Positions 9,813 to 57,088 of a DNA stretch of 64,000 nt are shown here, one piece after another. The notes beneath the pieces were generated by a model. The model saw only the letters and a list, made by a program, of their open reading frames with translations. It was not told the DNA's origin and searched no databases. How positions within the stretch are numbered: position 1 is the first letter of the stretch; each line of letters starts with the position of its first letter. The position numbers and the translations under genes are program-made. Source of the stretch: Candidatus Kaiserbacteria bacterium CG10_big_fil_rev_8_21_14_0_10_47_16 (GTDB taxonomy: Bacteria > Patescibacteriota > Minisyncoccia > Phycocordibacterales > UBA918). The stretch lies in assembly GCA_002773395.1 (NCBI GenBank), contig PFBI01000006.1:156657-220656 (forward strand), written 5' to 3'.

Positions 9813-10115
9813 TTAGAGTGATTGTTGTGAACCACTAATCGGTATACCGAAGGTTCCAGCTGCAATCATGAGAATGGTATATGCCGAAACCATGATGAGT
9901 AGACCGATAACACCGTAGAGCATATGCTGCCGCCCTTTACTCTGCGCGCCGTCATTACCAGCATTGGCAATGAATTCAAATGCGCCCCACAGAAAAACGA
10001 GTAGTGCGACCGCGAGCATGAGTGTCATGAGCGGAAACAATATAACGTCGTTTATTTTTGCAAGGATCGACTGTGCAGCGGCTGTTGCCGATGCACTGTC
10101 AGCATACGCGATCAT
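9813..10115 (-). CDS. TrbC/VirB2-like T4SS-pilin-family small membrane protein (paralog 1)
   Basis: 100 aa; two hydrophobic helices separated by a short basic loop (...FLWGAFEFIANAGNDGAQSKGRQHMLYGVIGLLIMV...). Same architecture as the ORFs at 10122, 13185 and 13496. Confidence 0.55.
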   Translation of the reverse strand: MIAYADSASATAAAQSILAKINDVILFPLMTLMLAVALLVFLWGAFEFIANAGNDGAQSKGRQHMLYGVIGLLIMVSAYTILMIAAGTFGIPISGSQQSL

Positions 10116-10121
10116 AGGCGT

Positions 10122-10499
10122 TTAGTTGTTCGTGAGGTTTACGTTTGGAATACCTTGGATGTCTTGTTGGTTAAGACCGAGACCAGATGAGAGAAGGTTT
10201 ACAATTCCCCATACTGATACCATGATCACGAAACCTGCAATACCCCAAATCATGTAATCGCGTCCTTTTTCTTTTGCTGTTTCAGAATCACGTGAAAAGA
10301 TAAAGTATGTTGCAACTCCCCAAATGAAGAGAAGGAATGCAATTGCGAAGATGAGCGGTACAAGCGTGAAGTTAATGAAGGTTACAATGTTTGTAAAAAA
10401 CACCGTTACTCCATTAAAGTTTCCTGGGCTTGTCTGCGCAAACGCAGCTACCGCTGGGAAAAAACTGGCGAATGGAAGGGCTCGAGCTAAAAATTTCAT
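10122..10499 (-). CDS. TrbC/VirB2-like T4SS-pilin-family small membrane protein (paralog 2, with signal peptide)
   Basis: 125 aa; signal peptide MKFLARALPFASFFPAVAAFAQ, then TM1, loop SRDSETAKEKGRDYMIWG, TM2. Lies 6 nt upstream of paralog 1. Confidence 0.55.
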   Translation of the reverse strand: MKFLARALPFASFFPAVAAFAQTSPGNFNGVTVFFTNIVTFINFTLVPLIFAIAFLLFIWGVATYFIFSRDSETAKEKGRDYMIWGIAGFVIMVSVWGIVNLLSSGLGLNQQDIQGIPNVNLTNN

Positions 10500-10762: not shown

Positions 10763-12049
10763 ATGGACACGTTCACAGATGTTCTCTCGTTTATCGTCAC
10801 TTTGCTGACGATACTCGTCGCAATACCGATCGGGGTATTTATACCCCTGTTTCTCTTCCCACTCATTCCGGGTGCGGTTGCATCGTTGGCAAACAACCCC
10901 AACAGGTTCCAACCGGAGAAAAACCCTAGTGTGCGTAATTACGAACCGAGCACATTCGGGTTCTTCACCACTCTGGCACCTGGCCAAGTGAAGCTCATCG
11001 AGCGCGGCAAGCGATTCATCGGCGGCATTATGCGGTTCGAAGGTCACAGCTTCGCTGGAGAGCAAGACAAAAAACTTGCTCGAAACACTCATGGGTATTG
11101 GGAGGTTACGAAAACAAATGGGGACGGAGAAGACACCCACCCCATTCCCAAGCCGAGCTGGGAAAAAGCCAAAAAAGACGGTGTGATTGGGGTCTTGCTT
11201 TACCCAGTCAAATGGATTTGGTGGAAATGGAAACGTTGGGTATACGAACTCACTGGGTACGTATTCACTGGCTTCTATCCGTTCCAACAGGTCCGCGTGG
11301 AAACGATCGACCGATACAAAAAAATCAAGCATGCTGATGGTTCTGAAGAAATCGTGTACATTGCCGACTATACAGACCATTTCCGTGTTGCCGATTTTCA
11401 GTTTCCGGTCATCATTCCGGATGCTGACACCCAAGACAAGATCCCGGTCAGAATGATCGTGGATACTGTTATGCGGTGTTTCAATCCGTACCTTGCCGCA
11501 TATGCAACAGATGACTGGTCGTCACGATCTACTACTTCAATAGGAGATGCGGTGACTCACTATACGCGGCCACGCAAACTTGACGTCGTCCTTTCAGCCG
11601 AAAGCACTGGTGACGTTCGCAAGATGGGAGAGGAAATATCCCAAATCGGTAATCGAACAATCCCAGAAGAGACTCAGACACCAAACAACATCGTCGCTTT
11701 CGGCTTCGAGGTTCGCCAGGTTCTGATACCTGACATATCTCTGGCAAACAAAGCTGATGCCAGACGACTGGGCGATGTTGCATTTGCCCGAGTTGACCGT
11801 GACGCCCAAGTGATACGTTCCGAGGGCACTGCCCAAGGTATCGCCTTACAAGCAAAGGCGGTCACCGAAGGTGGGGCTGCCGGCATGGCGGTACTCCTCT
11901 CAGAGCGGAATATAAAAACCGCAGATGTTGCGGGAGATAAGGCCATCGTGGTCATAGGTGGTGGGGCAGATCCTTTTGCAGCTGCCACATTCAAGGAGAT
12001 CAAGCAAATCAACGACAATACCAAGGGGACCAGTGATGGAAATACCTAG
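10763..12049 (+). CDS. SPFH/band-7 (stomatin/flotillin-like) domain membrane protein
   Basis: N-terminal TM (FIVTLLTILVAIPIGVFIPLFLF), then LAPGQVKLIERGKRFIG (SPFH start) and C-terminal ...VLIPDISLANKADARRLGDVAFARVDRDAQVIRSEGTAQGIALQAKA (the Ala/Glu-rich SPFH helix). Start taken at ATG 10763, downstream of an extended -10 box tgctataat at about 10623-10631. Confidence 0.5.
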   Translation: MDTFTDVLSFIVTLLTILVAIPIGVFIPLFLFPLIPGAVASLANNPNRFQPEKNPSVRNYEPSTFGFFTTLAPGQVKLIERGKRFIGGIMRFEGHSFAGEQDKKLARNTHGYWEVTKTNGDGEDTHPIPKPSWEKAKKDGVIGVLLYPVKWIWWKWKRWVYELTGYVFTGFYPFQQVRVETIDRYKKIKHADGSEEIVYIADYTDHFRVADFQFPVIIPDADTQDKIPVRMIVDTVMRCFNPYLAAYATDDWSSRSTTSIGDAVTHYTRPRKLDVVLSAESTGDVRKMGEEISQIGNRTIPEETQTPNNIVAFGFEVRQVLIPDISLANKADARRLGDVAFARVDRDAQVIRSEGTAQGIALQAKAVTEGGAAGMAVLLSERNIKTADVAGDKAIVVIGGGADPFAAATFKEIKQINDNTKGTSDGNT

Positions 12050-13112
12050 TATATCTGTCCCTATCTTCTTGTGGACGATAGGGGTGGTAGCAGCGCTCAT
12101 TGCTGCTGCCATAATCTTCTTCCTCTCATGGGGAGCACGTCAAGGGAGAAAGGCTGTGGAGAAACCTCAGAAAGAGAAGGATTCGGCAACCGAGTCTACA
12201 AAAGAAGTCAGCGAACCCGTCAACAAGAAGAAGGCTGGCAGCAGATGGGAGAAATTGAGGGTTCCTCGAAAGTATCTGATCTTTTTCCCGATTGTGCTGC
12301 TCTTCATCCTTCTGACAATATGGGGAGTAACCAGTCTCTTCGGCAGTTCCGACAAGGAAACAACAACCGCTTCCAACGTCGTCGCAGAAGAAACCACGAG
12401 TCCTCCAGCAGTGTCACCAAGTGAACCGAAAGCACCTACGGTGCAAAAAGAACACAAGGTGACACCGCAGGCGGCCCCAACAAGTACGGACGATGGAAAG
12501 GGGTGGCCACTGCTTCTTGCTGCGGTATTGTTTGCGGCAGGTATTTGGCTCATCAGCCTTGGAGCAAGGGCCAGAACACTATTCGGCTTCCTCCTCTGCA
12601 TTCCTCTTCTCTGGCTATCTTTACCCCTCGTTGGTATATCCTTCGATTCATGGGGTGGAATAACTCGCTGGGGAGGTCTTGGCCTACTCGCCTTACTCGG
12701 TGGGTTCATGGCTTGGAAATCCAACTCATGGATCGTGCGAGTGATTGGAGGCATTCTTGTATTGCCGATAATCATCGCCGCGCTATCCGGACCATCCGCT
12801 GGTGACCGTTTCGCCGACAACCTCGGCAAGACTGTCATTGACGCAAGTGATGGCGTCGGCGAAAAACTCGGCGGGCTTACGAGTGGTGAAGGGTCGACAA
12901 CTGGCACCATCAAGCTCAAGGGCGAGATAACGACAGTCTGGCTCGACGGCCATTGGCGCAATATGCCAATTCCTTCGGGCACCTGCACGCTCACGAGCCC
13001 TGGGAGTCTCATTGAATTTGAGTTCCCAAACCAAACTCTGACACGCATGCGTAGTCAGAGTGGTGAAAAGATCCAGGCGACGGTCACCATGAAGCCTTAC
13101 GGCACGTGTTGA
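12036..13112 (+). CDS. polytopic membrane protein (about 6 TM helices, S/T/P-rich loop, about 100-aa C-terminal soluble domain), function unknown
   Basis: ATG at 12036 overlaps the upstream stop by 14 nt, which suggests translational coupling. Multiple hydrophobic segments. Confidence 0.5.
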   Translation: MEIPSISVPIFLWTIGVVAALIAAAIIFFLSWGARQGRKAVEKPQKEKDSATESTKEVSEPVNKKKAGSRWEKLRVPRKYLIFFPIVLLFILLTIWGVTSLFGSSDKETTTASNVVAEETTSPPAVSPSEPKAPTVQKEHKVTPQAAPTSTDDGKGWPLLLAAVLFAAGIWLISLGARARTLFGFLLCIPLLWLSLPLVGISFDSWGGITRWGGLGLLALLGGFMAWKSNSWIVRVIGGILVLPIIIAALSGPSAGDRFADNLGKTVIDASDGVGEKLGGLTSGEGSTTGTIKLKGEITTVWLDGHWRNMPIPSGTCTLTSPGSLIEFEFPNQTLTRMRSQSGEKIQATVTMKPYGTC

Positions 13113-13184: not shown

Positions 13185-13499
13185 TTATATACCAAATATT
13201 CCGCCGCGAAGAAGCGCGATGATCCCCCAAATACCAACCATGACCACGAGTACGAGTACTCCTGTTGTGATGATTTTCTTTCCTTTTTCAACTTGCGCTT
13301 CCTCTGCCCCACCAATTACCCATGTTCGAATGATTGCCCATACGAGTACGATGAAAGTGAGAGCGAAAATGAACGTAATCAACAAATTTATGATACTGAG
13401 GAAGAGATCCACAAGTGAACCGAAACTCTTTGGTGTTGCAACAGCTGCAGACGTCAGCATCGGTGTCATTACTATGAGAAGTGAGAGGAAGTATTTCAT
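13185..13499 (-). CDS. TrbC/VirB2-like T4SS-pilin-family small membrane protein (paralog 3)
   Basis: 104 aa: signal peptide, TM1, loop GGAEEAQVEKGKKI, TM2. Confidence 0.55.
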   Translation of the reverse strand: MKYFLSLLIVMTPMLTSAAVATPKSFGSLVDLFLSIINLLITFIFALTFIVLVWAIIRTWVIGGAEEAQVEKGKKIITTGVLVLVVMVGIWGIIALLRGGIFGI

Positions 13500-13954
13500 T
13501 TTGTAATTGCCGTAATAGTACCTTGTATAACTTCAAGGATTGCCCATGCGCCGAGTACAATGACGCCGCCAATAACCGCCCACGTAAGGGCTGCACGCGC
13601 TTTCTGGATTTGTGCTGGTTCACCACGTGCTGTTACAAAGAGGAATCCTGCGTACATGATAAAGAGCACGATAATAGGTATTGCAAAGACGAGAATAATC
13701 GCAATGACCGACTTGAGGAAATCAGTGAGATTGTAGTTTTCGCTTGAACTGAGTGGATTGGTAAGTTTTACTGTACCTCCTGAACCAGACCCAGGGTTTG
13801 CACCCGAAGGTACATTATCAGTTGGATTTGAACCTGAAGGAACTGAGTTACCCGAGTTGGAACCAGATGGAACAGTGTCCGCTGCAAATACCACCCCCTG
13901 TACAGGCACTATCATCATTGTAGTTACTACCGCTCCGATAAAAAAGTTTTTCAT
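13496..13954 (-). CDS. TrbC/VirB2-like T4SS-pilin-family small membrane protein (paralog 4, with N-terminal VPSGSN repeats)
   Basis: Start taken at MKNFFIG (ATG 13952-13954), 8 nt after the SBP gene stop. Repeats VPSGSNSGNSVPSGSNPTDNVPSGANP, then TM1, loop TARGEPAQIQKARAALTW, TM2. ATGA overlap with paralog 3. Confidence 0.55.
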   Translation of the reverse strand: MKNFFIGAVVTTMMIVPVQGVVFAADTVPSGSNSGNSVPSGSNPTDNVPSGANPGSGSGGTVKLTNPLSSSENYNLTDFLKSVIAIILVFAIPIIVLFIMYAGFLFVTARGEPAQIQKARAALTWAVIGGVIVLGAWAILEVIQGTITAITK

Positions 13955-21804: not shown

Positions 21805-22383
21805 CTACGCGTTATACGCATTCATCGTTTTTGCAACACCCTCTTCCACAATCATCTTGAGCGCCGCAACCATGTCTGGCATGCGTGCCTCTAATCTCGA
21901 GCGTTCTCGCTTCGTGAAGTCCTTTAACACAAAATCAGCAATACGATCCCCTTTTGGTCGATGCGCGTTCCCAAAGAGTGAAACGGGGCAAATACCAACT
22001 CGCAGTCTGATGAATTCCTGTGAACCCAGTGAACGAACAACTGACTCAACACCATTATGTCCCCCACTTCCACGCCCAACACTTACCTTAAATGCGCCAA
22101 TGGGAATATCGAGATCATCGTGTACCACAATAATACTATCTGCGTCAGATACTGCCTTTTTTACCGATGCGCCACTCGCATTCATAAAAGTATTCGGAAG
22201 AAGTACTCGAACGTTCGTACCTGAGAGAGTCCCCTCGGACATATCCGCGACGAGCGCGCTCGAAGGCACAAAGTTTGGGAGACCGACAGTTTCCACAAAA
22301 CTGGCTACGACGAGCGCACCAGCATTGTGTCGTGTGTTTGCGTACGGAGGAGTAGGGTTTCGAAGTCCAACAATTGTGTACAT
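21805..22383 (-). CDS. pth: peptidyl-tRNA hydrolase
   Basis: MYTIVGLRNPTPPYANTRHNAG (Pth N-terminal signature with catalytic His); start at M11 of the track ORF. Confidence 0.85.
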   Translation of the reverse strand: MYTIVGLRNPTPPYANTRHNAGALVVASFVETVGLPNFVPSSALVADMSEGTLSGTNVRVLLPNTFMNASGASVKKAVSDADSIIVVHDDLDIPIGAFKVSVGRGSGGHNGVESVVRSLGSQEFIRLRVGICPVSLFGNAHRPKGDRIADFVLKDFTKRERSRLEARMPDMVAALKMIVEEGVAKTMNAYNA

Positions 22384-22417
22384 ATGTGTACTTGTATTGT
22401 ACACGATTTGCATAAAC

Positions 22418-22446
22418 TTGCTCCTATCAGAGCAAGCGACTATAAT
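22418..22446 (+). promoter_or_regulatory. promoter of lepB (TTGCTC-N17-TATAAT), nearly leaderless
   Basis: -35 at 22418-23, -10 at 22441-46, ATG at 22462. Confidence 0.45.
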
Positions 22447-22461
22447 GGTCTACATTCAACT

Positions 22462-23106
22462 ATGGAACAGCCACTACACAGTACCGTTGAAGCAAAAGAC
22501 AGTGCTGTTACCCCTGTATCCAGTCCCCTATCACCTAAAGAAAAGAAAGAACCGTCATTTCTCGGCGAATTCTTTCGTTTCTCTCTTATTGCAATCATCA
22601 TTGTGGTACCCATCCGTTTCTTTGTTGCACAACCATTTATTGTTTCTGGCGCATCAATGGAAAACACGTTTGAAACCGGCGAATACCTCATCGTTGATCA
22701 AGTGACCTACAAGCTCTCTGAGCCAAGTCGCGGTGACGTCATTGTATTTCACTACCCGAAAGATCCTTCAAAGTTCTACATCAAGCGTGTTATTGGTCTT
22801 CCGGGCGACACCGTATCTATAGTCGATGCGCAGGTAACCATCACGAACACCGAACACCCTGAAGGAGTGGTTCTCGATGAACCATACATCAAGCATATGT
22901 CCCCCGCAGCACCCTCATCAGTCACACTCGGTACCGACGAATACTTCGTTATGGGTGACAATCGCGACAAGAGTTCTGACTCCCGCATATGGGGAGTGCT
23001 CACACGTGAGGGCATTGTCGGTCGCGCATACCTCAGACTCTTCCCGATCACAAACGCTGCATACCTCCCCGGAACATACGATATCAATAGCGAAGTTAAT
23101 CAATAA
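22462..23106 (+). CDS. lepB: signal peptidase I
   Basis: Catalytic Ser box GASMENTF, ...GDVIVFHYP..., YFVMGDNRDKSSDSRIWG (Lys box). Confidence 0.8.
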   Translation: MEQPLHSTVEAKDSAVTPVSSPLSPKEKKEPSFLGEFFRFSLIAIIIVVPIRFFVAQPFIVSGASMENTFETGEYLIVDQVTYKLSEPSRGDVIVFHYPKDPSKFYIKRVIGLPGDTVSIVDAQVTITNTEHPEGVVLDEPYIKHMSPAAPSSVTLGTDEYFVMGDNRDKSSDSRIWGVLTREGIVGRAYLRLFPITNAAYLPGTYDINSEVNQ

Positions 23107-23110
23107 ATCT

Positions 23111-24277
23111 ATGTCACTCATTTCTTCAGTTGATTTTCTCAAGCACGGCGTAAACACGATTAGACATTTTGGATTTAAATCAGTCGATGAACTCAAAAAC
23201 GACCCGCTCTGCAGAGAATGTAAAAAAAGAGTTGATGACAAAACATCCGCTGTCGACAAACGTGTAGACGGTCTTCATGGCATGCTCACGGGCGGCGCTG
23301 CAACATACTTCGGCAGTCGATTGAATGCAATTGAAGGACCAGTACTTTTCTATACAACAGAAACCGTTCCGCGCACCGGAGACGCTGCCCTCTCTCTCCA
23401 CATATTTGGTGTAGAAAAGAGCATCGCTGAAGCGCTCCTTATTCAAACAATGCGCGCACTCGCAAATGAAAGCGGTTTCCCGAACCACAGTGTCCGCATC
23501 AATTCCCTTGGAGACGATGACTCCGTAGCGCGCTACACGCGTGAACTCACAAACTATCTTCGAAAGCGTGCCGACGTATTGCCTCCTGCTGCGCGTGAAC
23601 TCATGAAGGAACATGCATTCTCAGCACTCATGCACCTTATCGAACGTGATGACGAACTCGCACGCAAGAGTCCAAACTCTCTTGAGTATCTCAGTGACCC
23701 AAGTCGAAAACATTTTCGCGAGATTATCGAATACCTCGATATGAGTCAAACCCCATACGAAATTGATTCATCACTCATCGGACACCACCAGTGTTACTCA
23801 GATGCACTCTTTGCATTTGACCTCTTTGATGAAGAATCAAACAAACTCAAAGAACAACCACTCTACATCCGCGGTGGCCGATACGGCACCTTTGTAAAAC
23901 GAATGAGCGGACTCACGGTACCCGCAGTATCTGCAGTCGCAGTCCTTCGTGATAAGAAAGCTCCGACCCACCTTCCGAAGATGAAGATACCTACACCATC
24001 AGTCTTTGTGGTACAGCTTGGCTTTGGACCAAAAATAAAAAGTCTCCTTCTCATCAACGAACTCCGTGAAGCAGGTATTCCAGTATTCCAAAATCTCACC
24101 AGCGACTCACTTTCAGGACAACTCCTTGAAGCTGCAGAACGCAATACACGCTTTGCACTCATTGTCGGACAGAAAGAATTTATTGACGACAGTGTTATAC
24201 TGCGAGATCTCCACGCACAATCACAAGAAAGCGTCCCTATCAGTGGCATCGTACGGCGTCTCCAGCGCGTTCTCTAG
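23111..24277 (+). CDS. histidyl-tRNA synthetase-like class II aaRS paralog with degenerate motif 2 and intact anticodon-binding-like domain (HisZ-like)
   Basis: Matches the HisRS mid/C-terminal regions: HIFGVEKSIAEALLIQT...INSLG, NSLEYLSDPSRK (resembling LNPLRILDSK), RGGRYGTF (resembling GGRYD) and a C-terminal alpha/beta anticodon-binding fold (VFVVQLGFG...ALIVGQKEF). Where the motif-2 arginines (FRYERPQ.GRYRQF) should be, the sequence reads LFYTTETVPRTGDAALSL. Confidence 0.5.
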   Translation: MSLISSVDFLKHGVNTIRHFGFKSVDELKNDPLCRECKKRVDDKTSAVDKRVDGLHGMLTGGAATYFGSRLNAIEGPVLFYTTETVPRTGDAALSLHIFGVEKSIAEALLIQTMRALANESGFPNHSVRINSLGDDDSVARYTRELTNYLRKRADVLPPAARELMKEHAFSALMHLIERDDELARKSPNSLEYLSDPSRKHFREIIEYLDMSQTPYEIDSSLIGHHQCYSDALFAFDLFDEESNKLKEQPLYIRGGRYGTFVKRMSGLTVPAVSAVAVLRDKKAPTHLPKMKIPTPSVFVVQLGFGPKIKSLLLINELREAGIPVFQNLTSDSLSGQLLEAAERNTRFALIVGQKEFIDDSVILRDLHAQSQESVPISGIVRRLQRVL

Positions 24278-24348: not shown

Positions 24349-24759
24349 ATGAACAAGTTTTTTCAGCATATGCTTTGGGATACACACGCACTTCTCGTTG
24401 CACGTGTACTCATGGGAGGTATGTTTTTGCTCGCAGGTATCGATAAACTACAAAACATCGACGGCATCGCCCTCATGATTGCGGGCGCAGGTCTTCCTGC
24501 TGCCGGTCTCCTTGCATGGCTTTCAGGGATTTTTGAAGTACTTGCAGGAGCAGCAATTATCGTTGGGTATCACTTCCGCGAAGCTGCTGTGCTTCTCGCC
24601 CTCTTCACATTGGTGGTAGCGTTTCTCTTTCATACCCCAACCTCATGGACAGAGAGTCCAATCCAGAAAGTATTCTTTATGAAAGACATGGCGATCTTTG
24701 CAGGTCTCCTCTTTATGGCCGCACACGGATCAGGAAATACGTGGAAGGTACGAAAGTAA
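24349..24759 (+). CDS. DoxX-family membrane protein
   Basis: 136 aa, 4 TM; hydrophobicity pattern and size resemble DoxX; no diagnostic motif identified. Confidence 0.55.
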   Translation: MNKFFQHMLWDTHALLVARVLMGGMFLLAGIDKLQNIDGIALMIAGAGLPAAGLLAWLSGIFEVLAGAAIIVGYHFREAAVLLALFTLVVAFLFHTPTSWTESPIQKVFFMKDMAIFAGLLFMAAHGSGNTWKVRK

Positions 24760-24774
24760 CCGATATGTATATAA

Positions 24775-24806
24775 AAGGCCGAGAGCGAAGCTCTCGGCCT
24801 TTTATA
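24775..24806. terminator. bidirectional terminator (doxX / fba convergent)
   Basis: aaaaggccgagagc-gaag-ctctcggcctttt. Confidence 0.7.
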
Positions 24807-24819
24807 ATACGTTTCTATA

Positions 24820-25839
24820 TTATCCTTTGTCTTCTGATGCGTTGTACTTTCCTTGTTGTGCGAGACTGTTCATTTTTGTGCGATAGAGCAATGCTTGTTG
24901 TGCTTTCTCGATGTTTCCATCTTTTCCCTGCCATGCGGTCAAGACCGGTTCCTCAAGTGCGCGAGAAAACGATGACGAGATTGGCCATGGCTGCTTCCCC
25001 ATTTTTGCAATCGCATGTAAATTTTCGGTTGCACGTTTTGGTGCCTGCCCACCGGACAGAAATACGATACCCCCGACGTCATGCGGAACCCCGAGCCGTA
25101 GTGTGCGGAGCGTACTATCAGCAACCTCTTCTGGTGTAGACGGTGTCTTGTACATATCTCCCGCAAGTACCATCGATGTTTTGAGAATAAGACCTTTGAA
25201 GTCAACACGGTACATACGAAGTTTCGTAAACAATATTTGTAGCGCACGTGTTGTTACTTCTTCGGCACGTTGTAGGGAATGGTTGCCTGCAAAGATAACT
25301 TCCGGCTCAACCATTGGAACAATACCTGCAGCCTGCGCGAGCGCAGCATAGCGTGCAAGCATGATTGCGTTTATCTCCAAACACTCGTCCGATGGGAGTG
25401 TGTCTCCGTCGATAGTAATGACCGCCCGCCACTTGGCAAACCGTGCACCGAGCGTGTAATACTCCTTAAATCGGTCGGCGAGACCATCGAGTCCTTCGGT
25501 CACCACTTCTCCATCAAATCCTTCAAGTGGTACCGTGCCGGTATCAACCTTTATTCCTGGAATAATACCGCGAGCGGCAAGTACGTCAGCAAACGGCACT
25601 CCACCTTTTGTTTCTCCTCGTATGGTTGAGTCGTATAAAATAACACCCGAGAGATACTCCTCAATGCCTGGTGCAGTAAAAAGGAGTTCACGAAACGCAC
25701 GACGATGTTCAATTTCATTTGGAAGATGGACCATTTCGAGTCGCTTTCCTGCAGTCCCATCACTCTCATCTGCAGCAAGAATTCCCTTACCGCTCTCCAT
25801 CATCTGTGCAACAATTTTATAAAGATCGTTTTGATTCAT
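24820..25839 (-). CDS. fba: class I fructose-bisphosphate aldolase
   Basis: 339 aa; ...GKGILAADESDGTAGKRL... (class I FBA N-terminal signature). Confidence 0.8.
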   Translation of the reverse strand: MNQNDLYKIVAQMMESGKGILAADESDGTAGKRLEMVHLPNEIEHRRAFRELLFTAPGIEEYLSGVILYDSTIRGETKGGVPFADVLAARGIIPGIKVDTGTVPLEGFDGEVVTEGLDGLADRFKEYYTLGARFAKWRAVITIDGDTLPSDECLEINAIMLARYAALAQAAGIVPMVEPEVIFAGNHSLQRAEEVTTRALQILFTKLRMYRVDFKGLILKTSMVLAGDMYKTPSTPEEVADSTLRTLRLGVPHDVGGIVFLSGGQAPKRATENLHAIAKMGKQPWPISSSFSRALEEPVLTAWQGKDGNIEKAQQALLYRTKMNSLAQQGKYNASEDKG

Positions 25840-25869
25840 ACAAAAATAATATCATGCTTACTGCACTCG

Positions 25870-26607
25870 CTACGCGCGGATTTTCCACCCGATCTTAAAG
25901 AGGTATGTCACGAGTGCTGCGAGACCTACAAGCAGACCCCCAATAACGAGTAGTCCAACCCCCGGATTTGCTTCACTCACACCAATCATTGAACTACGGA
26001 TACCATCCACAAAATAGAAGAACGGATTGATGTGTGTCAGAAGCTGTGCAGATTGCGGAAGCATCGTCACTGAATAGAAGATACCGCCGAGATACGTAAA
26101 CGGGGTGATGATAAAGGTATTGAGAATAGTAAGTTGTTCAAAGCCGTCTGCCCACAATGCCACCAACATACCAAGCAGTGAAAAGATTCCAGAAACGGCA
26201 ATCACGTACAGTACAAATCCAATAGGATTAACGAGCGTCACTGCGCCGAAGAAGAGTCCGACAACGAGAATAAGGAACGCAACAATAAGTGCTCGAAGGA
26301 CTGCACCGAACATATATCCAAAAATCATTTCCACATACGAGAACGGTGCGAGAAGAATTTCTTCAATACCTTTTACAAAGCGTGCGAAGTAAAGTGATGA
26401 AGAACTACTCGAGAATGACGCATTGATAATACTGAGCATCAAAATACCCGGAAACACGAACGTGATGTACGGAACCCCTACAATATTTTCAATACGTGAA
26501 CCAACCACAAACCCGAAGATGAATATGTATAGTGTCGCCGAAATAACCGGTGCGAGTACCGTCTGTACAACAACGCGCATCGTTCGTTCAACTTCACGTC
26601 GTACCAT
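25870..26607 (-). CDS. ABC-2 family transporter permease
   Basis: 6 TM segments. Start taken at MVRREVERTM (ATG 26605-07), because the longer ORF N-terminus overlaps a 17-bp inverted-repeat element. Confidence 0.65.
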   Translation of the reverse strand: MVRREVERTMRVVVQTVLAPVISATLYIFIFGFVVGSRIENIVGVPYITFVFPGILMLSIINASFSSSSSSLYFARFVKGIEEILLAPFSYVEMIFGYMFGAVLRALIVAFLILVVGLFFGAVTLVNPIGFVLYVIAVSGIFSLLGMLVALWADGFEQLTILNTFIITPFTYLGGIFYSVTMLPQSAQLLTHINPFFYFVDGIRSSMIGVSEANPGVGLLVIGGLLVGLAALVTYLFKIGWKIRA

Positions 26608-26629
26608 CGTATAGACTCCTATCCAGTTT

Positions 26630-26728
26630 ACCCCGTTAGAAATTATTGAGCGGTTTCTTTTGTTTTCAATATTTTGTGTGTTGTTCATACTTATGTACAT
26701 TGACGCTTTTGATAATTTCTAACGGGGT
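26630..26728. repeat. MITE-like element: perfect 17-bp terminal inverted repeats (accccgttagaaattat / ataatttctaacggggt) enclosing 65 nt, between the ABC ATPase and permease genes
   Basis: Arms at 26630-26646 and 26712-26728 are exact reverse complements. The arms resemble those of the element at 59900-60022. Confidence 0.45.
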
Positions 26729-26741
26729 TAATTCCCATACG

Positions 26742-27485
26742 CTAAAATGTTTCTCCTTTAGTAATTTCTAAATACCGTTGTTCAAGCGACTTTCCACCTG
26801 CAATAAACTCATTTTTTGTCCCTTCTGCAATAATCTTTCCATTGTTAATGATAGCAATGTCATTACAAAGCATCTCAATCTCTTCAAGATAGTGTGACGT
26901 CAAAATGATAGTCTTGCCTCGCTGCTCATTGAGCTCACGGAGATACGCCCAGAGTTCATGACGCTGCTCTACATCCACTCCTGCCGTTGGTTCATCAAGG
27001 ATAAGGAGATCTGGCGCATGCACGAGTCCGCGCGCAAGCATGACACGACGCTTCAATCCTCCTGAGAGGTGCTGAAACTTTTTGTTGCGGTGTGCTTCTA
27101 AATCAAAGCGTGCAATGAGTTCATCAATGCGAGATTGCCGTTCACGCTTCGGCATACCGTAGTAGCCACCAACATAATCGAGGAGCTGATCAGGTGTTGA
27201 GAAGATATCTACATTGAACTCCTGTGGTGAGAGACCGACTTTTTTACGGGCAGTCTTGTACTCTTTCACTACATCAGTACCATCAATCATAATTGAACCG
27301 CTTGTTATCTTTGCAATTCCGGTAATGCAGTGAATCGTACTTGATTTCCCTGCACCATTTGGACCAAGTAAACCAAAAAATGCACCCCGTGGGATACGGA
27401 GTGAAAGGTCTGCGACCGCGGTCTTATCGCCATACTTCTTTACAAGGTGATCGATCACCAAAATATCATCTGTTGCCTTTTGCAT
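26742..27485 (-). CDS. ABC transporter ATP-binding protein
   Basis: Walker A GPNGAGKSST, signature LSGGLKRR, Walker B LLILDEP. Confidence 0.85.
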   Translation of the reverse strand: MQKATDDILVIDHLVKKYGDKTAVADLSLRIPRGAFFGLLGPNGAGKSSTIHCITGIAKITSGSIMIDGTDVVKEYKTARKKVGLSPQEFNVDIFSTPDQLLDYVGGYYGMPKRERQSRIDELIARFDLEAHRNKKFQHLSGGLKRRVMLARGLVHAPDLLILDEPTAGVDVEQRHELWAYLRELNEQRGKTIILTSHYLEEIEMLCNDIAIINNGKIIAEGTKNEFIAGGKSLEQRYLEITKGETF

Positions 27486-37049: not shown

Positions 37050-37886
37050 TCATTTTTGAGCACAAAGTTTCCTCGCTTCTTCGAGTGCCTCACCCATTTT
37101 AGACGATGAAATCCCCTTTCCTTCAAGCATTTCTGGCCGCGCGACGATATCACGACACAGAATCACACCTGACGCAAGCAAACGTTCTTTCTGGCTACTT
37201 GAGAGGCTTGCAAGTACCGTAATCGGATACATGCCGGCTCGTTCGATGCGATTTTGTAGTGAGTTTCCTTTTGGCGCATTCCATCCAATAAGTTCGATGC
37301 CACTGCAGCGTGCGTAGTCGATTGCTGCTTTGGTGAATTTTGTATTCGTGACCACGTAGAGTGACACGACACCACATACATCATCCCGACACACTGCCGT
37401 TGATTTCAAATCGAGGTACCGTGCGTATGAGTACATTGCGACCTGTAGATCAGATTTAATACCAGGATGACCATGAAACTTTGCTTCCGCTACAAAGCTG
37501 TGATCTGCGCGATATCCTGCAACATCAATTTCATGTGTTGCGCACTTTCCTCGGAGTGTGAGGCGTGTTTTTGTTTTATATCCTTCTGCTTCAAAGAGAC
37601 GCGCAAGAAAGTCTTCAAAGGGAAACCCTGTCGGACCAAGTCCAAAGAGCGCACGGCGAAGCGAGTACTTTGCGGCAACCGGTCGCGTACTCTCACGAAG
37701 GAGCGCAAACGCAGCACGATAGATTTCGTCAGTCTTCATCCCTTCACTTAATGAAGCTTCTATCTGTCCTACAATACTTTCTACCTCCGCTTTCGCAGCT
37801 CCCGCGCGCCGGAGTGAGCGGCGTAATTTATTTGAATCAAACAGCTCTCTCGTCCCATCCGCTTTTGTAATAACTACGTTTTTCAT
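37050..37886 (-). CDS. ATP-cone domain fused to Mrr-like restriction-endonuclease-fold (PD-(D/E)XK) domain
   Basis: N-terminal VVITKADGTRELFDSNKLRRSLRRAGA (ATP-cone); ...FEDFLARLFEAEGY...HEIDVAGY...VAEAKF (Mrr_cat D...EAK). ATGA start/stop overlap with mnmA (37883-37886). Confidence 0.6.
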   Translation of the reverse strand: MKNVVITKADGTRELFDSNKLRRSLRRAGAAKAEVESIVGQIEASLSEGMKTDEIYRAAFALLRESTRPVAAKYSLRRALFGLGPTGFPFEDFLARLFEAEGYKTKTRLTLRGKCATHEIDVAGYRADHSFVAEAKFHGHPGIKSDLQVAMYSYARYLDLKSTAVCRDDVCGVVSLYVVTNTKFTKAAIDYARCSGIELIGWNAPKGNSLQNRIERAGMYPITVLASLSSSQKERLLASGVILCRDIVARPEMLEGKGISSSKMGEALEEARKLCAQK

Positions 37887-40000: not shown

Positions 40001-41389
40001 CTAAGATGCAATTGGAAGATTCGGTGGTGCTTCGCTTCGTGTTGACGGAATACGACCGACAGTCGGTGTGGTAACGACCTTGCCTGGAATATGGAATATT
40101 GTCGCAAGCTCCTCTGTCGTCATTATTTTCTTTCCATCCTTCGCTCCTCGCTGGGAGTATGACCGAAGTTTATACTCACGAAGCTCATCCTTCTTCCACG
40201 CCTGCTTCTTGCGACCACTCGGATCTTGCCACCAGTTCCAGTCATAGTCAGTGCGCCACCGCACGCCAAGCGCGTTGCGATTAATGTCGTCATATCCACG
40301 CCACGAAGTAATGAGCGAACCAATACGCTCCCCTGGCGTATACGCTTCGTTGGTCGCAATGTACATACCTCGAATAGCCACGTTAAACGCGTTCTTACCA
40401 AGACTTCGCTCCACTGCCTTAATAGTGTCTTTTTCGGTATCGGTAAGCTGCTGCATCACATTGCCTCCCGCATTTTCACCTGCACGCTTCTGAGCATCTG
40501 CAATCATCTTTTGAATAAAGGCATTCGCGGCAGGCTTCCAGTCTGATTGCTTCGTAAGCGACCCTTCCTTGAAACCGACATCTCGGTTTGCATCGATGAG
40601 AATCTGCGCCCAAAAATATTCGCCAGGACCAATCGCAGCAAACGGCTCGAGCATAGTGGTGATTGGATCAATTTTTTCTTCTTCCTTCGGCATAGTGTGC
40701 ATGCCGTATTCAATATATGTTTTGAGCGGCAATGCATCATCTTTCTTAAGATTGAAGTGGAGTGAGAAGTAGCTAAATCGACTCGGGTCCCACGGAATTT
40801 CTGACGTGTAATCCACATCAAGTTCAATCATTTCAACACCCGGATACTGCGAATAGAAACCTGCCTCTGCAATATTCTTAAATTTCTTCCGTGGGACATT
40901 AATATAGAAACGTACATCGCCACCTCGTGAAACAATTTCAAGACTGGTGACCGGAGGATGTTTTCCGTCCCAATACGTCTGGATATGGTTGTCCGGTGCA
41001 GCCGTTTGGTGGAGCTGATTGAGAATAAGCTCCATTACTTCTGGTGATTTAAATACTTCCTGCGGAATACGAATTTCGAGCGTAACTCTCCCCTGCTTCA
41101 GGTCAAACTCTCGTCGCACAAATTCAAGCCAGTACTCATAAAAAAGACCGAATGTAATGACGGGAAGCCATACTGGTGACGTAATGAGTATGATCTTTAC
41201 GGTCGCACTCGAAGATACATCGAGTGTAAAAAAAGCTGCACCGATCGCAATAATACCCAGCACCACCAATATGATGCCGCCGTTTGCTCCGAGATCCTCT
41301 AGTTTACTGAGCATGTGTACACATTGTATCGTAAAATCCCCGTGGATGCGCAAAAACGTCGGGAATAACGACACCTGACCTTTGCGCAC
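40001..41389 (-). CDS. hypothetical membrane protein (N-terminal TM pair, about 380-aa soluble domain), unknown family
   Basis: 462 aa; no recognizable catalytic motif and no Walker A; stop lies 1 nt before the mltG start. Confidence 0.45.
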   Translation of the reverse strand: MRKGQVSLFPTFLRIHGDFTIQCVHMLSKLEDLGANGGIILVVLGIIAIGAAFFTLDVSSSATVKIILITSPVWLPVITFGLFYEYWLEFVRREFDLKQGRVTLEIRIPQEVFKSPEVMELILNQLHQTAAPDNHIQTYWDGKHPPVTSLEIVSRGGDVRFYINVPRKKFKNIAEAGFYSQYPGVEMIELDVDYTSEIPWDPSRFSYFSLHFNLKKDDALPLKTYIEYGMHTMPKEEEKIDPITTMLEPFAAIGPGEYFWAQILIDANRDVGFKEGSLTKQSDWKPAANAFIQKMIADAQKRAGENAGGNVMQQLTDTEKDTIKAVERSLGKNAFNVAIRGMYIATNEAYTPGERIGSLITSWRGYDDINRNALGVRWRTDYDWNWWQDPSGRKKQAWKKDELREYKLRSYSQRGAKDGKKIMTTEELATIFHIPGKVVTTPTVGRIPSTRSEAPPNLPIAS

Positions 41390-41432: not shown

Positions 41433-42458
41433 TTACTCCAATACAATGTATGACCCGTCAGGGAGACGCTTGAACAGCGCTGGATCCTGTAGATTGACCA
41501 CAATCGTATTGTCCTTTACATATCGTTCTTTCCGAACCTTATCGATGATTTCTTCACGCGTCAGTGGACCGTGTTTCTGAAGAATATCCTGAAGCACATC
41601 CTTTACCACTCCTGCTGAGTATCCCCATTCTGTGAGCGCGTAGAGTCCGCGTCCAACAAGGACGAAGCGCTCATCTTTAATAAGTTCATTGTGCGTTGTC
41701 GCAGTATGCGCCTTCTTATCAAAGAGTTCGCCAATTGCTCCTGCAACTTCCTTAAAGTGCATTGGTGAACCGTGTCGCTTTACCGCGAGGTATGCATAAT
41801 CACGAATTCCCTTTGCACGCACATTTGGACTCTGGGCAGGTCCCCATTCACCGAGCGGATTGCATCCAATGTTCTTTGAAAGACGGAGCCAACGACGAAG
41901 CACTTCTTCTTTTCGGTATCGCTCTTCTACATCACCAAGTTCTTTTTGGAGACGTGCGATAATTTCATCTTCTGGCACAAGTTCATCTTCAGAGAGTGAA
42001 GAAAATACTTTTTCAAGTGCTCGTTCTACGGTATTAGAAACTTTCTGTTCGATATACCACCGATGATGGAATTCGTTGTTTTCTTTATTTCGGTAAAATG
42101 GACTACCGAGTACGAGAAGGAAATAGAGATGATTACGGGTTACTTCGTCTTTCGCAAGTTCTGAGAGGAGGTCTTCCTCAGAAACAACGGCACCGAGGCC
42201 ATCAATCGCAGCACGCATTTCATCAAACACCACCTGGAACTCATCGTAGGCTGGTGACTTCTGAATTGACTGGATAGCGTAGTTCTCAATCTGACGAACA
42301 CGCTCACGGGTGATCCCGTATGTCTGCCCAATTGATTCAAGGGTCTGCGCCTTTGTGTTCTTGCCGAGTCCGTAGCGCTTTTCAAGCACATCACGAGCAC
42401 GGTCAGGAAGCACTGCAAGCAGCTTCTTTGTGACCTGTTTTGGTGCAAATGTAACCAT
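41433..42458 (-). CDS. DNA-binding regulator: sigma-70 region-4-like HTH followed by two HARE-HTH domains
   Basis: LPDRARDVLEKRYGL...TLESIGQTYGITRERVRQIENYAIQSI (sigma region 4). Two HARE-HTH units (...HGSPMHFKEVAGAIGEL... and ...HGPLTREEIIDKV...). GGAGG RBS 14 nt upstream of the ATG at 42456-58. Confidence 0.55.
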   Translation of the reverse strand: MVTFAPKQVTKKLLAVLPDRARDVLEKRYGLGKNTKAQTLESIGQTYGITRERVRQIENYAIQSIQKSPAYDEFQVVFDEMRAAIDGLGAVVSEEDLLSELAKDEVTRNHLYFLLVLGSPFYRNKENNEFHHRWYIEQKVSNTVERALEKVFSSLSEDELVPEDEIIARLQKELGDVEERYRKEEVLRRWLRLSKNIGCNPLGEWGPAQSPNVRAKGIRDYAYLAVKRHGSPMHFKEVAGAIGELFDKKAHTATTHNELIKDERFVLVGRGLYALTEWGYSAGVVKDVLQDILQKHGPLTREEIIDKVRKERYVKDNTIVVNLQDPALFKRLPDGSYIVLE

Positions 42459-42627: not shown

Positions 42628-43371
42628 ATGACAGAAGAAGGAAAAGGGCGCCTTGTCACAGGGCTTACCATACTTGGCTTTATAGCGGTGCTGGCACTGT
42701 GTGTTTTTGCTGCAGTTAAGCTCGTTCAACTTACTCCTAACATCTTCTCTTCCCTTGCGAACGTAACCGTCGGTACACAGGATGAATCCGACAGTACAGT
42801 AGCTACTACCGACACCACTAACGGTCCCTCTACCGTTACTATTATTCGGAATCCTGCGACAAGTACGCCCCCAACAGTAACTCCTGCAACAAGCACGCCG
42901 CAGCAACGACCGCCAGTTACACCACCGACGACACCGCAGCAACCTCCTGTGACGCCACAGCCACAACCCGAAACCTATACATACAATTACACATATCTTC
43001 CAACGTCAGATCCAAACGGGTACACCGACCTCGTCGCGCGTGTATACGCAACAGGGTACGTGCGTAATCACACCTTCGTTGAAAGTCCGTACGTTGATAC
43101 GAATGATACCGCCGCGGTGCAGATATCAGTGAAAAATACGGGTACCAAAACATCTGACCGTTTCGATGTTGATATCACACTTCCAACCGGCGATGACTTC
43201 TCGCTTGATAACCAGGCAGGTATTCAGCCAAATGAAGAAGTGATCATCACCTTCTCGTTTGATCCACGAAGCCTCTCAGGTACCCGATCATTTGATGGAC
43301 GAGTCTCTGTATCGAACGATGTAAATGTTTCAAGCAACTCATTCTACGGAACCGTACAATTTCGAAACTAA
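42628..43371 (+). CDS. hypothetical secreted protein with Pro/Thr-rich linker
   Basis: Signal anchor, then TSTPPTVTPATSTPQQRPPVTPPTTPQQPPVTPQPQP, then about 130-aa beta-rich domain. Confidence 0.45.
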   Translation: MTEEGKGRLVTGLTILGFIAVLALCVFAAVKLVQLTPNIFSSLANVTVGTQDESDSTVATTDTTNGPSTVTIIRNPATSTPPTVTPATSTPQQRPPVTPPTTPQQPPVTPQPQPETYTYNYTYLPTSDPNGYTDLVARVYATGYVRNHTFVESPYVDTNDTAAVQISVKNTGTKTSDRFDVDITLPTGDDFSLDNQAGIQPNEEVIITFSFDPRSLSGTRSFDGRVSVSNDVNVSSNSFYGTVQFRN

Positions 43372-56338: not shown

Positions 56339-57088
56339 CTAAATATTTTTCAACGTTTTTTCTCTCAGCTCTTCGTTTTTTCTCTCTAAAGTAGAATACT
56401 TTTCTTTAAAGTCACTACATAATGTAACTAAAGGGTAGTCCTCTACAGCACGATTTACTAAACCCAAAATACCAATTCCTAGATTTGCAGTCATCCAAAG
56501 ATCGGCTTTGTAGTATTTCTCATCTACTACCTCAAAAAATGACACGCTGAATTTACCCTCATTAGTTACCTTCACACCTCTCCACGCATCGATGATATTT
56601 GCATGAACAGATTGAAGCGACGCCCTTTCTTTAAACCCCTTGAGAGAAGAGCTTCCAACTGGATACTGCGCACTCAGCCAGTTGAACATTTTTGTCCTTA
56701 ATTTATCGGACGCTTCAAAAACCCCATTTTTACTCTTTTTTGCAAATTTTCCATGCTCATCAGGGTGAGCTAGGGCAAAAATAGCCCACGCACCAGCTTC
56801 TGAAGCTTGGCGTATATTGAACGCCGTTTGAGATCGATGACGACGGATACTCGAGAGCGCAGCCAACATCAAGTGTTTCTGAGCGAACGAAAAGAAGGTG
56901 ATGAAAATATGAGCATTCTTTCCAGTGTCAACTATTGAAGAGTTCATAAAATTAAAAACTTCCTGAGTATGGATATATAACTCAGTATTTCTAACATCAG
57001 TCTGCATTAATATTTTATTTTCAGTCTCTGCCATCAAAAGTATGTGGTCTGGACTTGAAATAAATAATCTTTTAATTCTGTTCCACAT
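56339..57088 (-). CDS. hypothetical protein, AT-rich orphan gene adjacent to tRNA-Gly
   Basis: 249 aa, no recognizable domain; local GC is visibly lower than the flanks. Confidence 0.45.
   Translation of the reverse strand: MWNRIKRLFISSPDHILLMAETENKILMQTDVRNTELYIHTQEVFNFMNSSIVDTGKNAHIFITFFSFAQKHLMLAALSSIRRHRSQTAFNIRQASEAGAWAIFALAHPDEHGKFAKKSKNGVFEASDKLRTKMFNWLSAQYPVGSSSLKGFKERASLQSVHANIIDAWRGVKVTNEGKFSVSFFEVVDEKYYKADLWMTANLGIGILGLVNRAVEDYPLVTLCSDFKEKYSTLERKNEELREKTLKNI

Follow-up and report, generated by a model that had tools for sequence, protein, structure and literature searches.

A conserved hisS-derived protein with a degenerate catalytic half and a retained anticodon-binding domain in ultra-small bacteria

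A 64,000-nucleotide stretch of contig PFBI01000006.1 from Candidatus Kaiserbacteria bacterium CG10_big_fil_rev_8_21_14_0_10_47_16 (positions 156,657 to 220,656; hereafter the window) carries a degenerate ortholog of hisS, the gene for histidyl-tRNA synthetase (HisRS), at 23111..24277 on the forward strand. The open reading frame (ORF) is intact, with an ATG at 23111, 388 codons, and a stop at 24275-24277. Profiles, PDB matches, and an AlphaFold2 (AF2) model agree on a 388-aa protein with the HisRS fold and an intact anticodon-binding domain (ABD). The gene encodes a conserved, selected, hisS-derived protein. The protein probably binds tRNA-His without catalysing its charging, and an ordinary HisRS would be encoded at a separate place in the genome. 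A first-pass annotation had considered a tRNA-binding pseudo-synthetase, and this is the best reading of a protein whose catalytic residues are lost and whose ABD is intact.

Homology to HisRS, also proposed in that annotation, is borne out by profiles and structure. The NCBIfam hisS profile TIGR00442 matches the window protein with an E value of 6e-31 and 107.8 bits (cutoff, 286.75), aligning residues 97-376 only, and ten diverse relatives score 86-158 bits, all under the same cutoff. HisRS chains in the PDB match with E values of 5e-15 to 1e-10, aligning from about residue 94 onward. The AF2 model, built on 120 homologs, has a predicted local distance difference test score (pLDDT) of 91.9, and its best 50 Foldseek matches in the PDB are HisRS in 50/50 cases. 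The window protein is a HisRS homolog, far beyond chance. Its sole Pfam match is HGTP_anticodon (PF03129; residues 314-385, E = 1.5e-9), in agreement with the C-terminal domain of anticodon-binding type seen earlier; the Pfam search gave no match to PF13393.

Catalytic half and anticodon-binding domain

The window protein was aligned to E. coli HisRS (sequence verified against 1KMM), T. thermophilus HisRS (4RDX/1ADJ), and canonical Patescibacteria HisRS, and a residue census compared 55 diverse members of the degenerate family with 39 canonical HisRS sequences. The roles of residues that contact G-1, the CCA end, the acceptor stem, and the anticodon are taken from the T. thermophilus HisRS-tRNA-His structure (PMC4357726).

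Three segments precede the ABD, all on the forward strand. In the N-terminal catalytic remnant (residues 1-100; 23111..23410), alignment to canonical HisRS reduces motif 1 to FGF. The earlier statement that the first ~70 residues are unlike motif 1 holds for the hairpin TF.D..G...LRPE, which is absent, and misses the faint trace FGF within the first 90 residues. The LRPEGT loop has become LHGMLT. Motif 2 reads GPVLFYTTETVPRTGDAALSLHIFG, with E. coli R113 opposite F80 or a gap, E115 opposite T82 or a gap, Q127 opposite A93, and E131 opposite H97. The class II motif 2 loop (E. coli E115, R116, Q118, R121, R123, F125, and Q127) is not matched by the window protein. The motif 2 arginine (E. coli R113) is found in 39/39 canonical sequences and in 0/55 family members. 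The by-eye alignment of motif 2 in the first-pass annotation was essentially right, and a full alignment against the E. coli and T. thermophilus enzymes does not recover the arginines.

The helical insertion domain (residues 101-215; 23411..23755) keeps INS.GD and SR.HF. It is followed by a remnant of HisA, HisB, and motif 3 (residues 216-290; 23756..23980), delimited by alignment and the AF2 model. LIGHHQCY replaces the HisA sequence LVRGLDYY, with E. coli R259 opposite G224; this position is Gly in 41/55 family members, and Y264 is kept in 27/55 only. The motif 3 region reads PAVSAVAVLRDKK, with SAVAVLRDK at the G.G.ER position. E. coli R311 is unmatched, R280 of the window protein stands one position off and is unconserved across the wider family, and the AF2 model has one long strand here rather than a strand and a helix. 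The RGGRYG sequence first taken for motif 3 is the HisB (histidine-2) motif, in which GGRY is kept (residues 255-258, nucleotides 23873-23884; GGRYG at 255-259). Equivalents of G285 and R287 occur in 55/55 family members and of Y288 in 43/55.

The family has also replaced residues that are invariant in the 39 canonical sequences. These include the G-1-binding R115 and R122 (T. thermophilus numbering), the CCA-end contacts E64, E114, Q117, and R120, and the ATP- and histidine-binding R112, F124, Q126, E81, T83, and R259. The basic clamp of the insertion domain that contacts the acceptor stem (T. thermophilus R197, R204, and K209), likewise invariant in the canonical set, is lost, and the motif 1 dimer-interface residues (canonical P45 and E48) are not retained. 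Beyond the degenerate motif 2 noted in the first pass, the arginines of HisA and motif 3 are absent along with that of motif 2. On this alignment, the class II catalytic apparatus is missing and the catalytic site appears dead.

These residues bear on the possibility that the protein is the organisms' only HisRS and still charges tRNA-His with a remodelled active site, which is quite unlikely. The GGRY motif, with G285 and R287 equivalents throughout the census, is what such an enzyme might keep, but the motif 2 and motif 3 arginines are gone along with R259, E83, Q127, and the adenine-stacking Phe. In class II synthetases the arginines of motifs 2 and 3 do not vary, and to our knowledge class II adenylation without them has no precedent.

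Cysteines and histidines show patterns of their own. In the close subfamily, P32, C34, and C37 (nucleotides 23204-23221) and H225, H226, and C228 (nucleotides 23783-23794) are at least 90% conserved and might form a metal site in the old active-site region; more distant members, such as P0133, lack the CxxC. Canonical Patescibacteria HisRS (L088-L094, L118, and L124) have a Cys-rich insertion domain with the sequences LCxDCKxRL..NPLRLLDCKxEKCQ and LCxxCKxHF, which is likely a zinc site. None of those insertion-domain cysteines is present in the degenerate family (window residues 150-200).

The class IIa ABD (residues 296-388; 23996..24274, forward strand; PF03129) has a different history. In the T. 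thermophilus HisRS-tRNA complex, E388, K397, and Q404 read the anticodon (PMC4357726). Their equivalents in the window protein, assigned by alignment to that enzyme, are E356 (nucleotides 24176-24178), R365 (24203-24205), and Q372 (24224-24226), which are kept in 55/55, 54/55 (with K in one more), and 55/55 of the diverse members, respectively. The Q-K that precedes the anticodon readers matches canonical Patescibacteria HisRS. The family ABD is 34% identical to the canonical ABDs of Patescibacteria, more than the 27% between those ABDs and the ABDs of other bacteria. Judged by these side chains, the ABD keeps exactly the GUG-reading residues of HisRS and would form an intact module for reading the tRNA-His anticodon.

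Genomic locus and family evolution

In related Patescibacteria, canonical hisS lies in the ancestral order pth(-)-lepB-hisS-(small ORF)-ybeY-ftsA-ftsZ, as in loci L089, L093, L094, L118, and L124; loci of Staskawiczbacteria, Minisyncoccales, and Uhrbacteria type have canonical hisS in this slot. The degenerate gene fills the same slot in relatives of the window organism (L005-L007), in L168-L170, and in members only 33% and 28% identical to the window protein (Pacebacteria and Giovannonibacteria). The window itself keeps the slot only upstream. There, lepB (signal peptidase I; 22384..23106, forward strand) lies directly 5' of the degenerate gene, with 4 nt between its stop and the hisS start, and pth (peptidyl-tRNA hydrolase; 21805..22383, reverse strand), a member of the conserved slot, diverges from lepB. 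Downstream, DoxX, a class I fructose-bisphosphate aldolase, and an ABC transporter (24349-27485) take the place of the relatives' ybeY-ftsA-ftsZ block, which is a local rearrangement in the window organism. A longer ORF from 22877 was rejected as the gene start, as it overlaps lepB out of frame and has no homolog support. Because it occupies the same slot as canonical hisS, the degenerate gene is a positional ortholog of hisS, and the first-pass description of a HisRS-like paralog is not supported.

Canonical relatives were sought by grafting canonical motifs onto the backbone of the window protein (alignment A6) and scanning metagenome contigs for FR[YHA]ERPQ[KAR]G or [RFH]L[VA]RGLDYY, with hits ranked by similarity to that backbone. 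At the highest-ranked loci, the encoded HisRS are fully canonical: every motif is present, and so are PF13393, PF00587, and PF03129. They score 240-293 bits against a hidden Markov model (HMM) of the degenerate family, compared with 120-190 bits for ordinary bacteria. NCBI labels them histidine--tRNA ligase of Minisyncoccales, Pacebacteria, Minisyncoccia, Uhrbacteria, and Berkelbacteria, and a later search added a canonical HisRS from Staskawiczbacteria. An FtsZ tree separates 70 organisms with the degenerate gene from 5 with a canonical slot in 50/50 bootstraps. In a neighbour-joining tree of insertion-domain and ABD columns, the degenerate family is monophyletic in 50/50 bootstraps and joins Patescibacteria canonical HisRS in 27/50.

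One ancestral event converted the resident hisS. The lineage's own gene would have turned non-catalytic in an ancestor shared by a large clade of Parcubacteria/Paceibacteria. Its catalytic half lost its binding residues for ATP, histidine, G-1, and the CCA end and then drifted between subfamilies, and its C-terminal domain kept the side chains that read the GUG anticodon.

Two further observations concern the slot. Downstream of the degenerate gene, and likewise of canonical hisS, lies a small conserved ORF of 81-90 aa (L006, 11222-11494; L007, 11208-11474; L168, 11286-11531; L094, 11143-11364), with a weak Ribosomal_S21 match in one locus. Locus L093 (contig OFEK01000095.1), with the canonical HisRS P0296, is assigned by NCBI to 'Candidatus Pacearchaeota archaeon'. 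This metagenome-assembled genome (MAG) is probably mis-binned or mis-labelled, since its lepB, ybeY, ftsA, and ftsZ are bacterial and in Patescibacteria order.

The family is large. The 120 best homologs are 58-79% identical to the window protein, span 384-406 aa, and come from Kaiserbacteria, Pacebacteria, and Parcubacteria MAGs; 94 of the 388 columns are at least 98% identical across them. A HMMER search of 1.84 billion cluster representatives found 301 clusters at E<=1e-30, and the same three arginines are missing in all of the best 150 of these 301 (150/150; 29-59% identity). At a 50% identity cut, the Parcubacteria/Paceibacteria proteins of the family form at least 300 clusters. Searches of GTDB species genomes gave at least 600 matches, among which the 80 top-ranking loci (51-62% identity) carry the degenerate kind without exception, including one on the closed chromosome CP060229.1. 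Relatives thus occur in at least 80 GTDB species genomes and probably in several hundred. A protein identical to that of the window (P0001) is NCBI GW943_01075 of the Candidatus Parcubacteria MAG GCA_009991995.1, and it also occurs on contigs of up to 624 kb. Relatives of the degenerate gene were not found in a scan of viral contigs, and plasmid and phage collections returned only ordinary hisS at ~24% identity.

Public names for the family are hypothetical protein, His/Gly/Thr/Pro-type tRNA ligase C-terminal domain protein, ATP phosphoribosyltransferase regulatory subunit, Histidine-tRNA ligase, and histidyl-tRNA synthetase, with examples among P0001, P0019, P0141, and P0274. A search with a broad family profile added no names, and full-text searches of the literature library used here found no description of this family. 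Since the labels range from histidyl-tRNA synthetase to HisZ and hypothetical protein, genome inventories and marker-gene counts may misread the protein; inventories based on names, or counts of single-copy markers, would take the family for working HisRS.

One of these names corresponds to HisZ, the regulatory subunit of ATP phosphoribosyltransferase, which the first-pass annotation had also found the protein to resemble. PGAP applies that name to P0141, and relatives match the HisZ profile TIGR00443 weakly, at 17-42 bits (cutoff, 271.65). However, the window protein has no TIGR00443 match at E<=1, and each of ten diverse relatives scores 3-8 times higher against the hisS profile. The protein also has a full ABD with anticodon readers, its gene lies in the hisS slot, and hisG, for which the first-pass annotation had suggested checking the genome, is absent from the window and from every neighbourhood examined. 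It is therefore very unlikely that the protein is HisZ.

Constraint on the protein is inverted relative to canonical HisRS. In the N-terminal catalytic half, canonical sequences are 45-55% identical to one another, whereas members of the degenerate family share 19%, and the N-terminal remnant is 14-15% identical to canonical HisRS. The corresponding identities among canonical sequences and within the degenerate family are 38-47% and 39% for the insertion domain, 50-57% and 30% from HisA to motif 3, and 27-46% and 43% for the ABD. The catalytic core is thus the least conserved part of the degenerate protein, and the ABD is the most conserved.

Within the subfamily, the ratio of nonsynonymous to synonymous substitution rates (dN/dS) is ~0.03 overall and 0.057 in the N-terminal remnant, values that are rough because dS is saturated. 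A decaying, functionless pseudogene is excluded by a dN/dS of ~0.03. Loss of all the catalytic residues might have suggested decay, but more than 1000 sequence clusters have an intact ORF, the ABD residues are invariant, and the model reaches a pLDDT of 91.9, so that this explanation can be given almost no credence.

Strong purifying selection within the subfamily, which includes the remnant of the catalytic half, would also be expected of a sole HisRS, as would a place in the hisS slot. Between subfamilies, the pattern is different. A new catalytic site would be conserved, yet the half that should hold it is only 19% identical. A new active site is unlikely, because its would-be region is the least conserved and arginine-free class II adenylation is without known precedent. 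Lineages with the degenerate gene have FtsZ proteins that are 72-79% identical and copies of the degenerate protein that are only 28-33% identical. Lineages with a canonical slot, at an FtsZ identity of 58%, still have HisRS proteins that are 42-54% identical. Calibrated by FtsZ, the degenerate protein evolves several-fold faster than canonical HisRS, and between subfamilies it appears to change faster than a working HisRS would allow.

Charging of tRNA-His and other genes of the window

The protein would bind tRNA-His via the anticodon loop and be unable to form histidyl-adenylate or charge the tRNA. It may serve as a tRNA-His-binding factor, such as a sensor, a chaperone, a sequestering protein, or a partner protein. 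If the protein cannot charge tRNA, then another enzyme must, and a gene at some other genomic position would encode the enzyme that makes His-tRNA-His.

Searches for that enzyme covered the surroundings of the gene. An HMM search of all six-frame ORFs in the 64-kb window with the family profile found only the degenerate gene itself, and no HisRS is encoded in the 10 kb upstream of the window. When 91 loci (1.5 Mb) were searched by tblastn, using the E. coli enzyme and five canonical HisRS of Patescibacteria as queries, again only the degenerate gene was retrieved. No tRNA-His gene is present in the window or in 87 loci (L001-L087). Of these 87 loci, 44 have a gene for tRNA-Glu no more than 10 kb from the degenerate gene.

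Several points weigh against a tRNA-His-binding protein that works beside a separate HisRS. The prediction of tRNA binding draws on a domain profile and on three or four residues. E. coli HisRS depends only weakly on the anticodon as a determinant (PMC4357726), and with the acceptor-stem contacts lost, any tRNA binding would rest on the anticodon alone. A second HisRS is absent from the window, the 10 kb upstream, and ~1.4 Mb of flanks of 90 related loci. This absence is weak evidence, however, because the sequence covered is essentially one conserved neighbourhood. Finally, as the gene is a positional ortholog, nothing shows that duplication or transfer ever supplied a replacement.

The lack of any other HisRS in ~1.5 Mb of clade DNA is also what a sole HisRS would predict. 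That the clade has no conventional HisRS, with this stripped protein as its only hisS-derived gene, is fairly unlikely. If true, either this protein would itself charge tRNA-His, with a chemistry foreign to all class II synthetases, or the charging would fall to an unrecognised enzyme to which the degenerate protein supplies anticodon recognition.

A related alternative, in which the protein is a non-catalytic, tRNA-presenting subunit of a two-protein HisRS and provides anticodon recognition for a catalytic partner that possibly lacks an ABD of its own, is similarly improbable. Retention of the anticodon readers with loss of the catalytic residues would suit such a subunit, as would universal retention of the gene in the clade under purifying selection, and in HisZ-HisG a HisRS-like protein is already a subunit of another enzyme. 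However, no conserved adjacent gene is a candidate partner, as the neighbours are housekeeping genes that also flank canonical hisS. Additionally, the motif 1 dimer-interface residues are lost, and a search of 1.5 Mb gave no HisRS-like ORF that lacks an ABD.

A hisS locus that appears catalytically dead raises the question of how these organisms produce His-tRNA-His. Should there be a replacement synthetase, an essential enzyme has been displaced and its ortholog kept for a new job specific to tRNA-His. Should there be none, these bacteria break a rule, either of the chemistry of class II synthetases or of the gene set for translation.

The remaining window genes are ordinary Patescibacteria housekeeping genes, including gatCA, ligA, infB, gyrA, gyrB, rpoD, dnaG, clpB, leuS, mnmA, and genes for ATP synthase. 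Five ORFs of 247-437 aa have no Pfam match (10763-12049, 12036-13112, 40001-41314, 42628-43371, and 56339-57088). Clusters of small genes resembling type IV secretion system (T4SS) pilins at 9813-10499 and 13185-13954 adjoin an SBP_bac_8 solute-binding protein, an arrangement kept in relatives. Two proteins have unusual domain combinations: an ATP-cone with an AF1548-like C-terminal domain (37050-37886), and Sigma70 region 4 with HARE-HTH (41433-42458).

Comparison with known systems

Canonical Patescibacteria HisRS (P0280, P0297, and P0283) and the degenerate protein have the fold, the order of three domains, and the genomic slot in common. They also share the insertion-domain motifs INSIG, AP, and HF, the ABD, and the anticodon-reading residues. 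In contrast to the canonical enzymes, the degenerate protein is ~40 residues shorter at the N-terminus and lacks the motif 2 Arg, the HisA sequence RGLDYY, the motif 3 G.ER, and equivalents of E64 and E114. The G-1-binding arginines, the basic clamp of the insertion domain, and the Cys-rich insertion are missing as well.

Among bacterial HisRS homologs that have been repurposed, HisZ is the nearest precedent. Like the degenerate protein, it derives from HisRS and has lost aminoacylation chemistry, and it keeps GGRYD. HisZ acts together with HisG, lacks an ABD, and is a paralog present in addition to hisS. The degenerate protein, unlike HisZ, has an ABD, occupies the hisS slot, has no hisG in its context, and scores nil or negligibly against TIGR00443.

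In function, the closest analogy would be the HisRS-like domain of eukaryotic Gcn2, going by the features described in the cited account. As described there, this domain mimics the HisRS catalytic domain and ABD, lacks the elements that form the adenylate, and binds uncharged tRNA rather than charging it (PMC11363354). It is fused to a kinase, and its ABD lacks the side chains that decode the anticodon, so that many tRNAs are sensed (PMC11363354). On these features, the degenerate protein shares only the loss of the adenylation elements; it is free-standing (388 aa) and keeps the GUG-reading residues. Because these residues are kept, unlike in Gcn2 as described in that account, specificity for tRNA-His is predicted. 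The known synthetase-like proteins that do not charge tRNA, HisZ and the Gcn2 domain, are extra copies or fused domains. What is unusual here is that the ortholog itself, at the organism's own hisS locus, appears to be catalytically dead across a large and abundant group of ultra-small bacteria.

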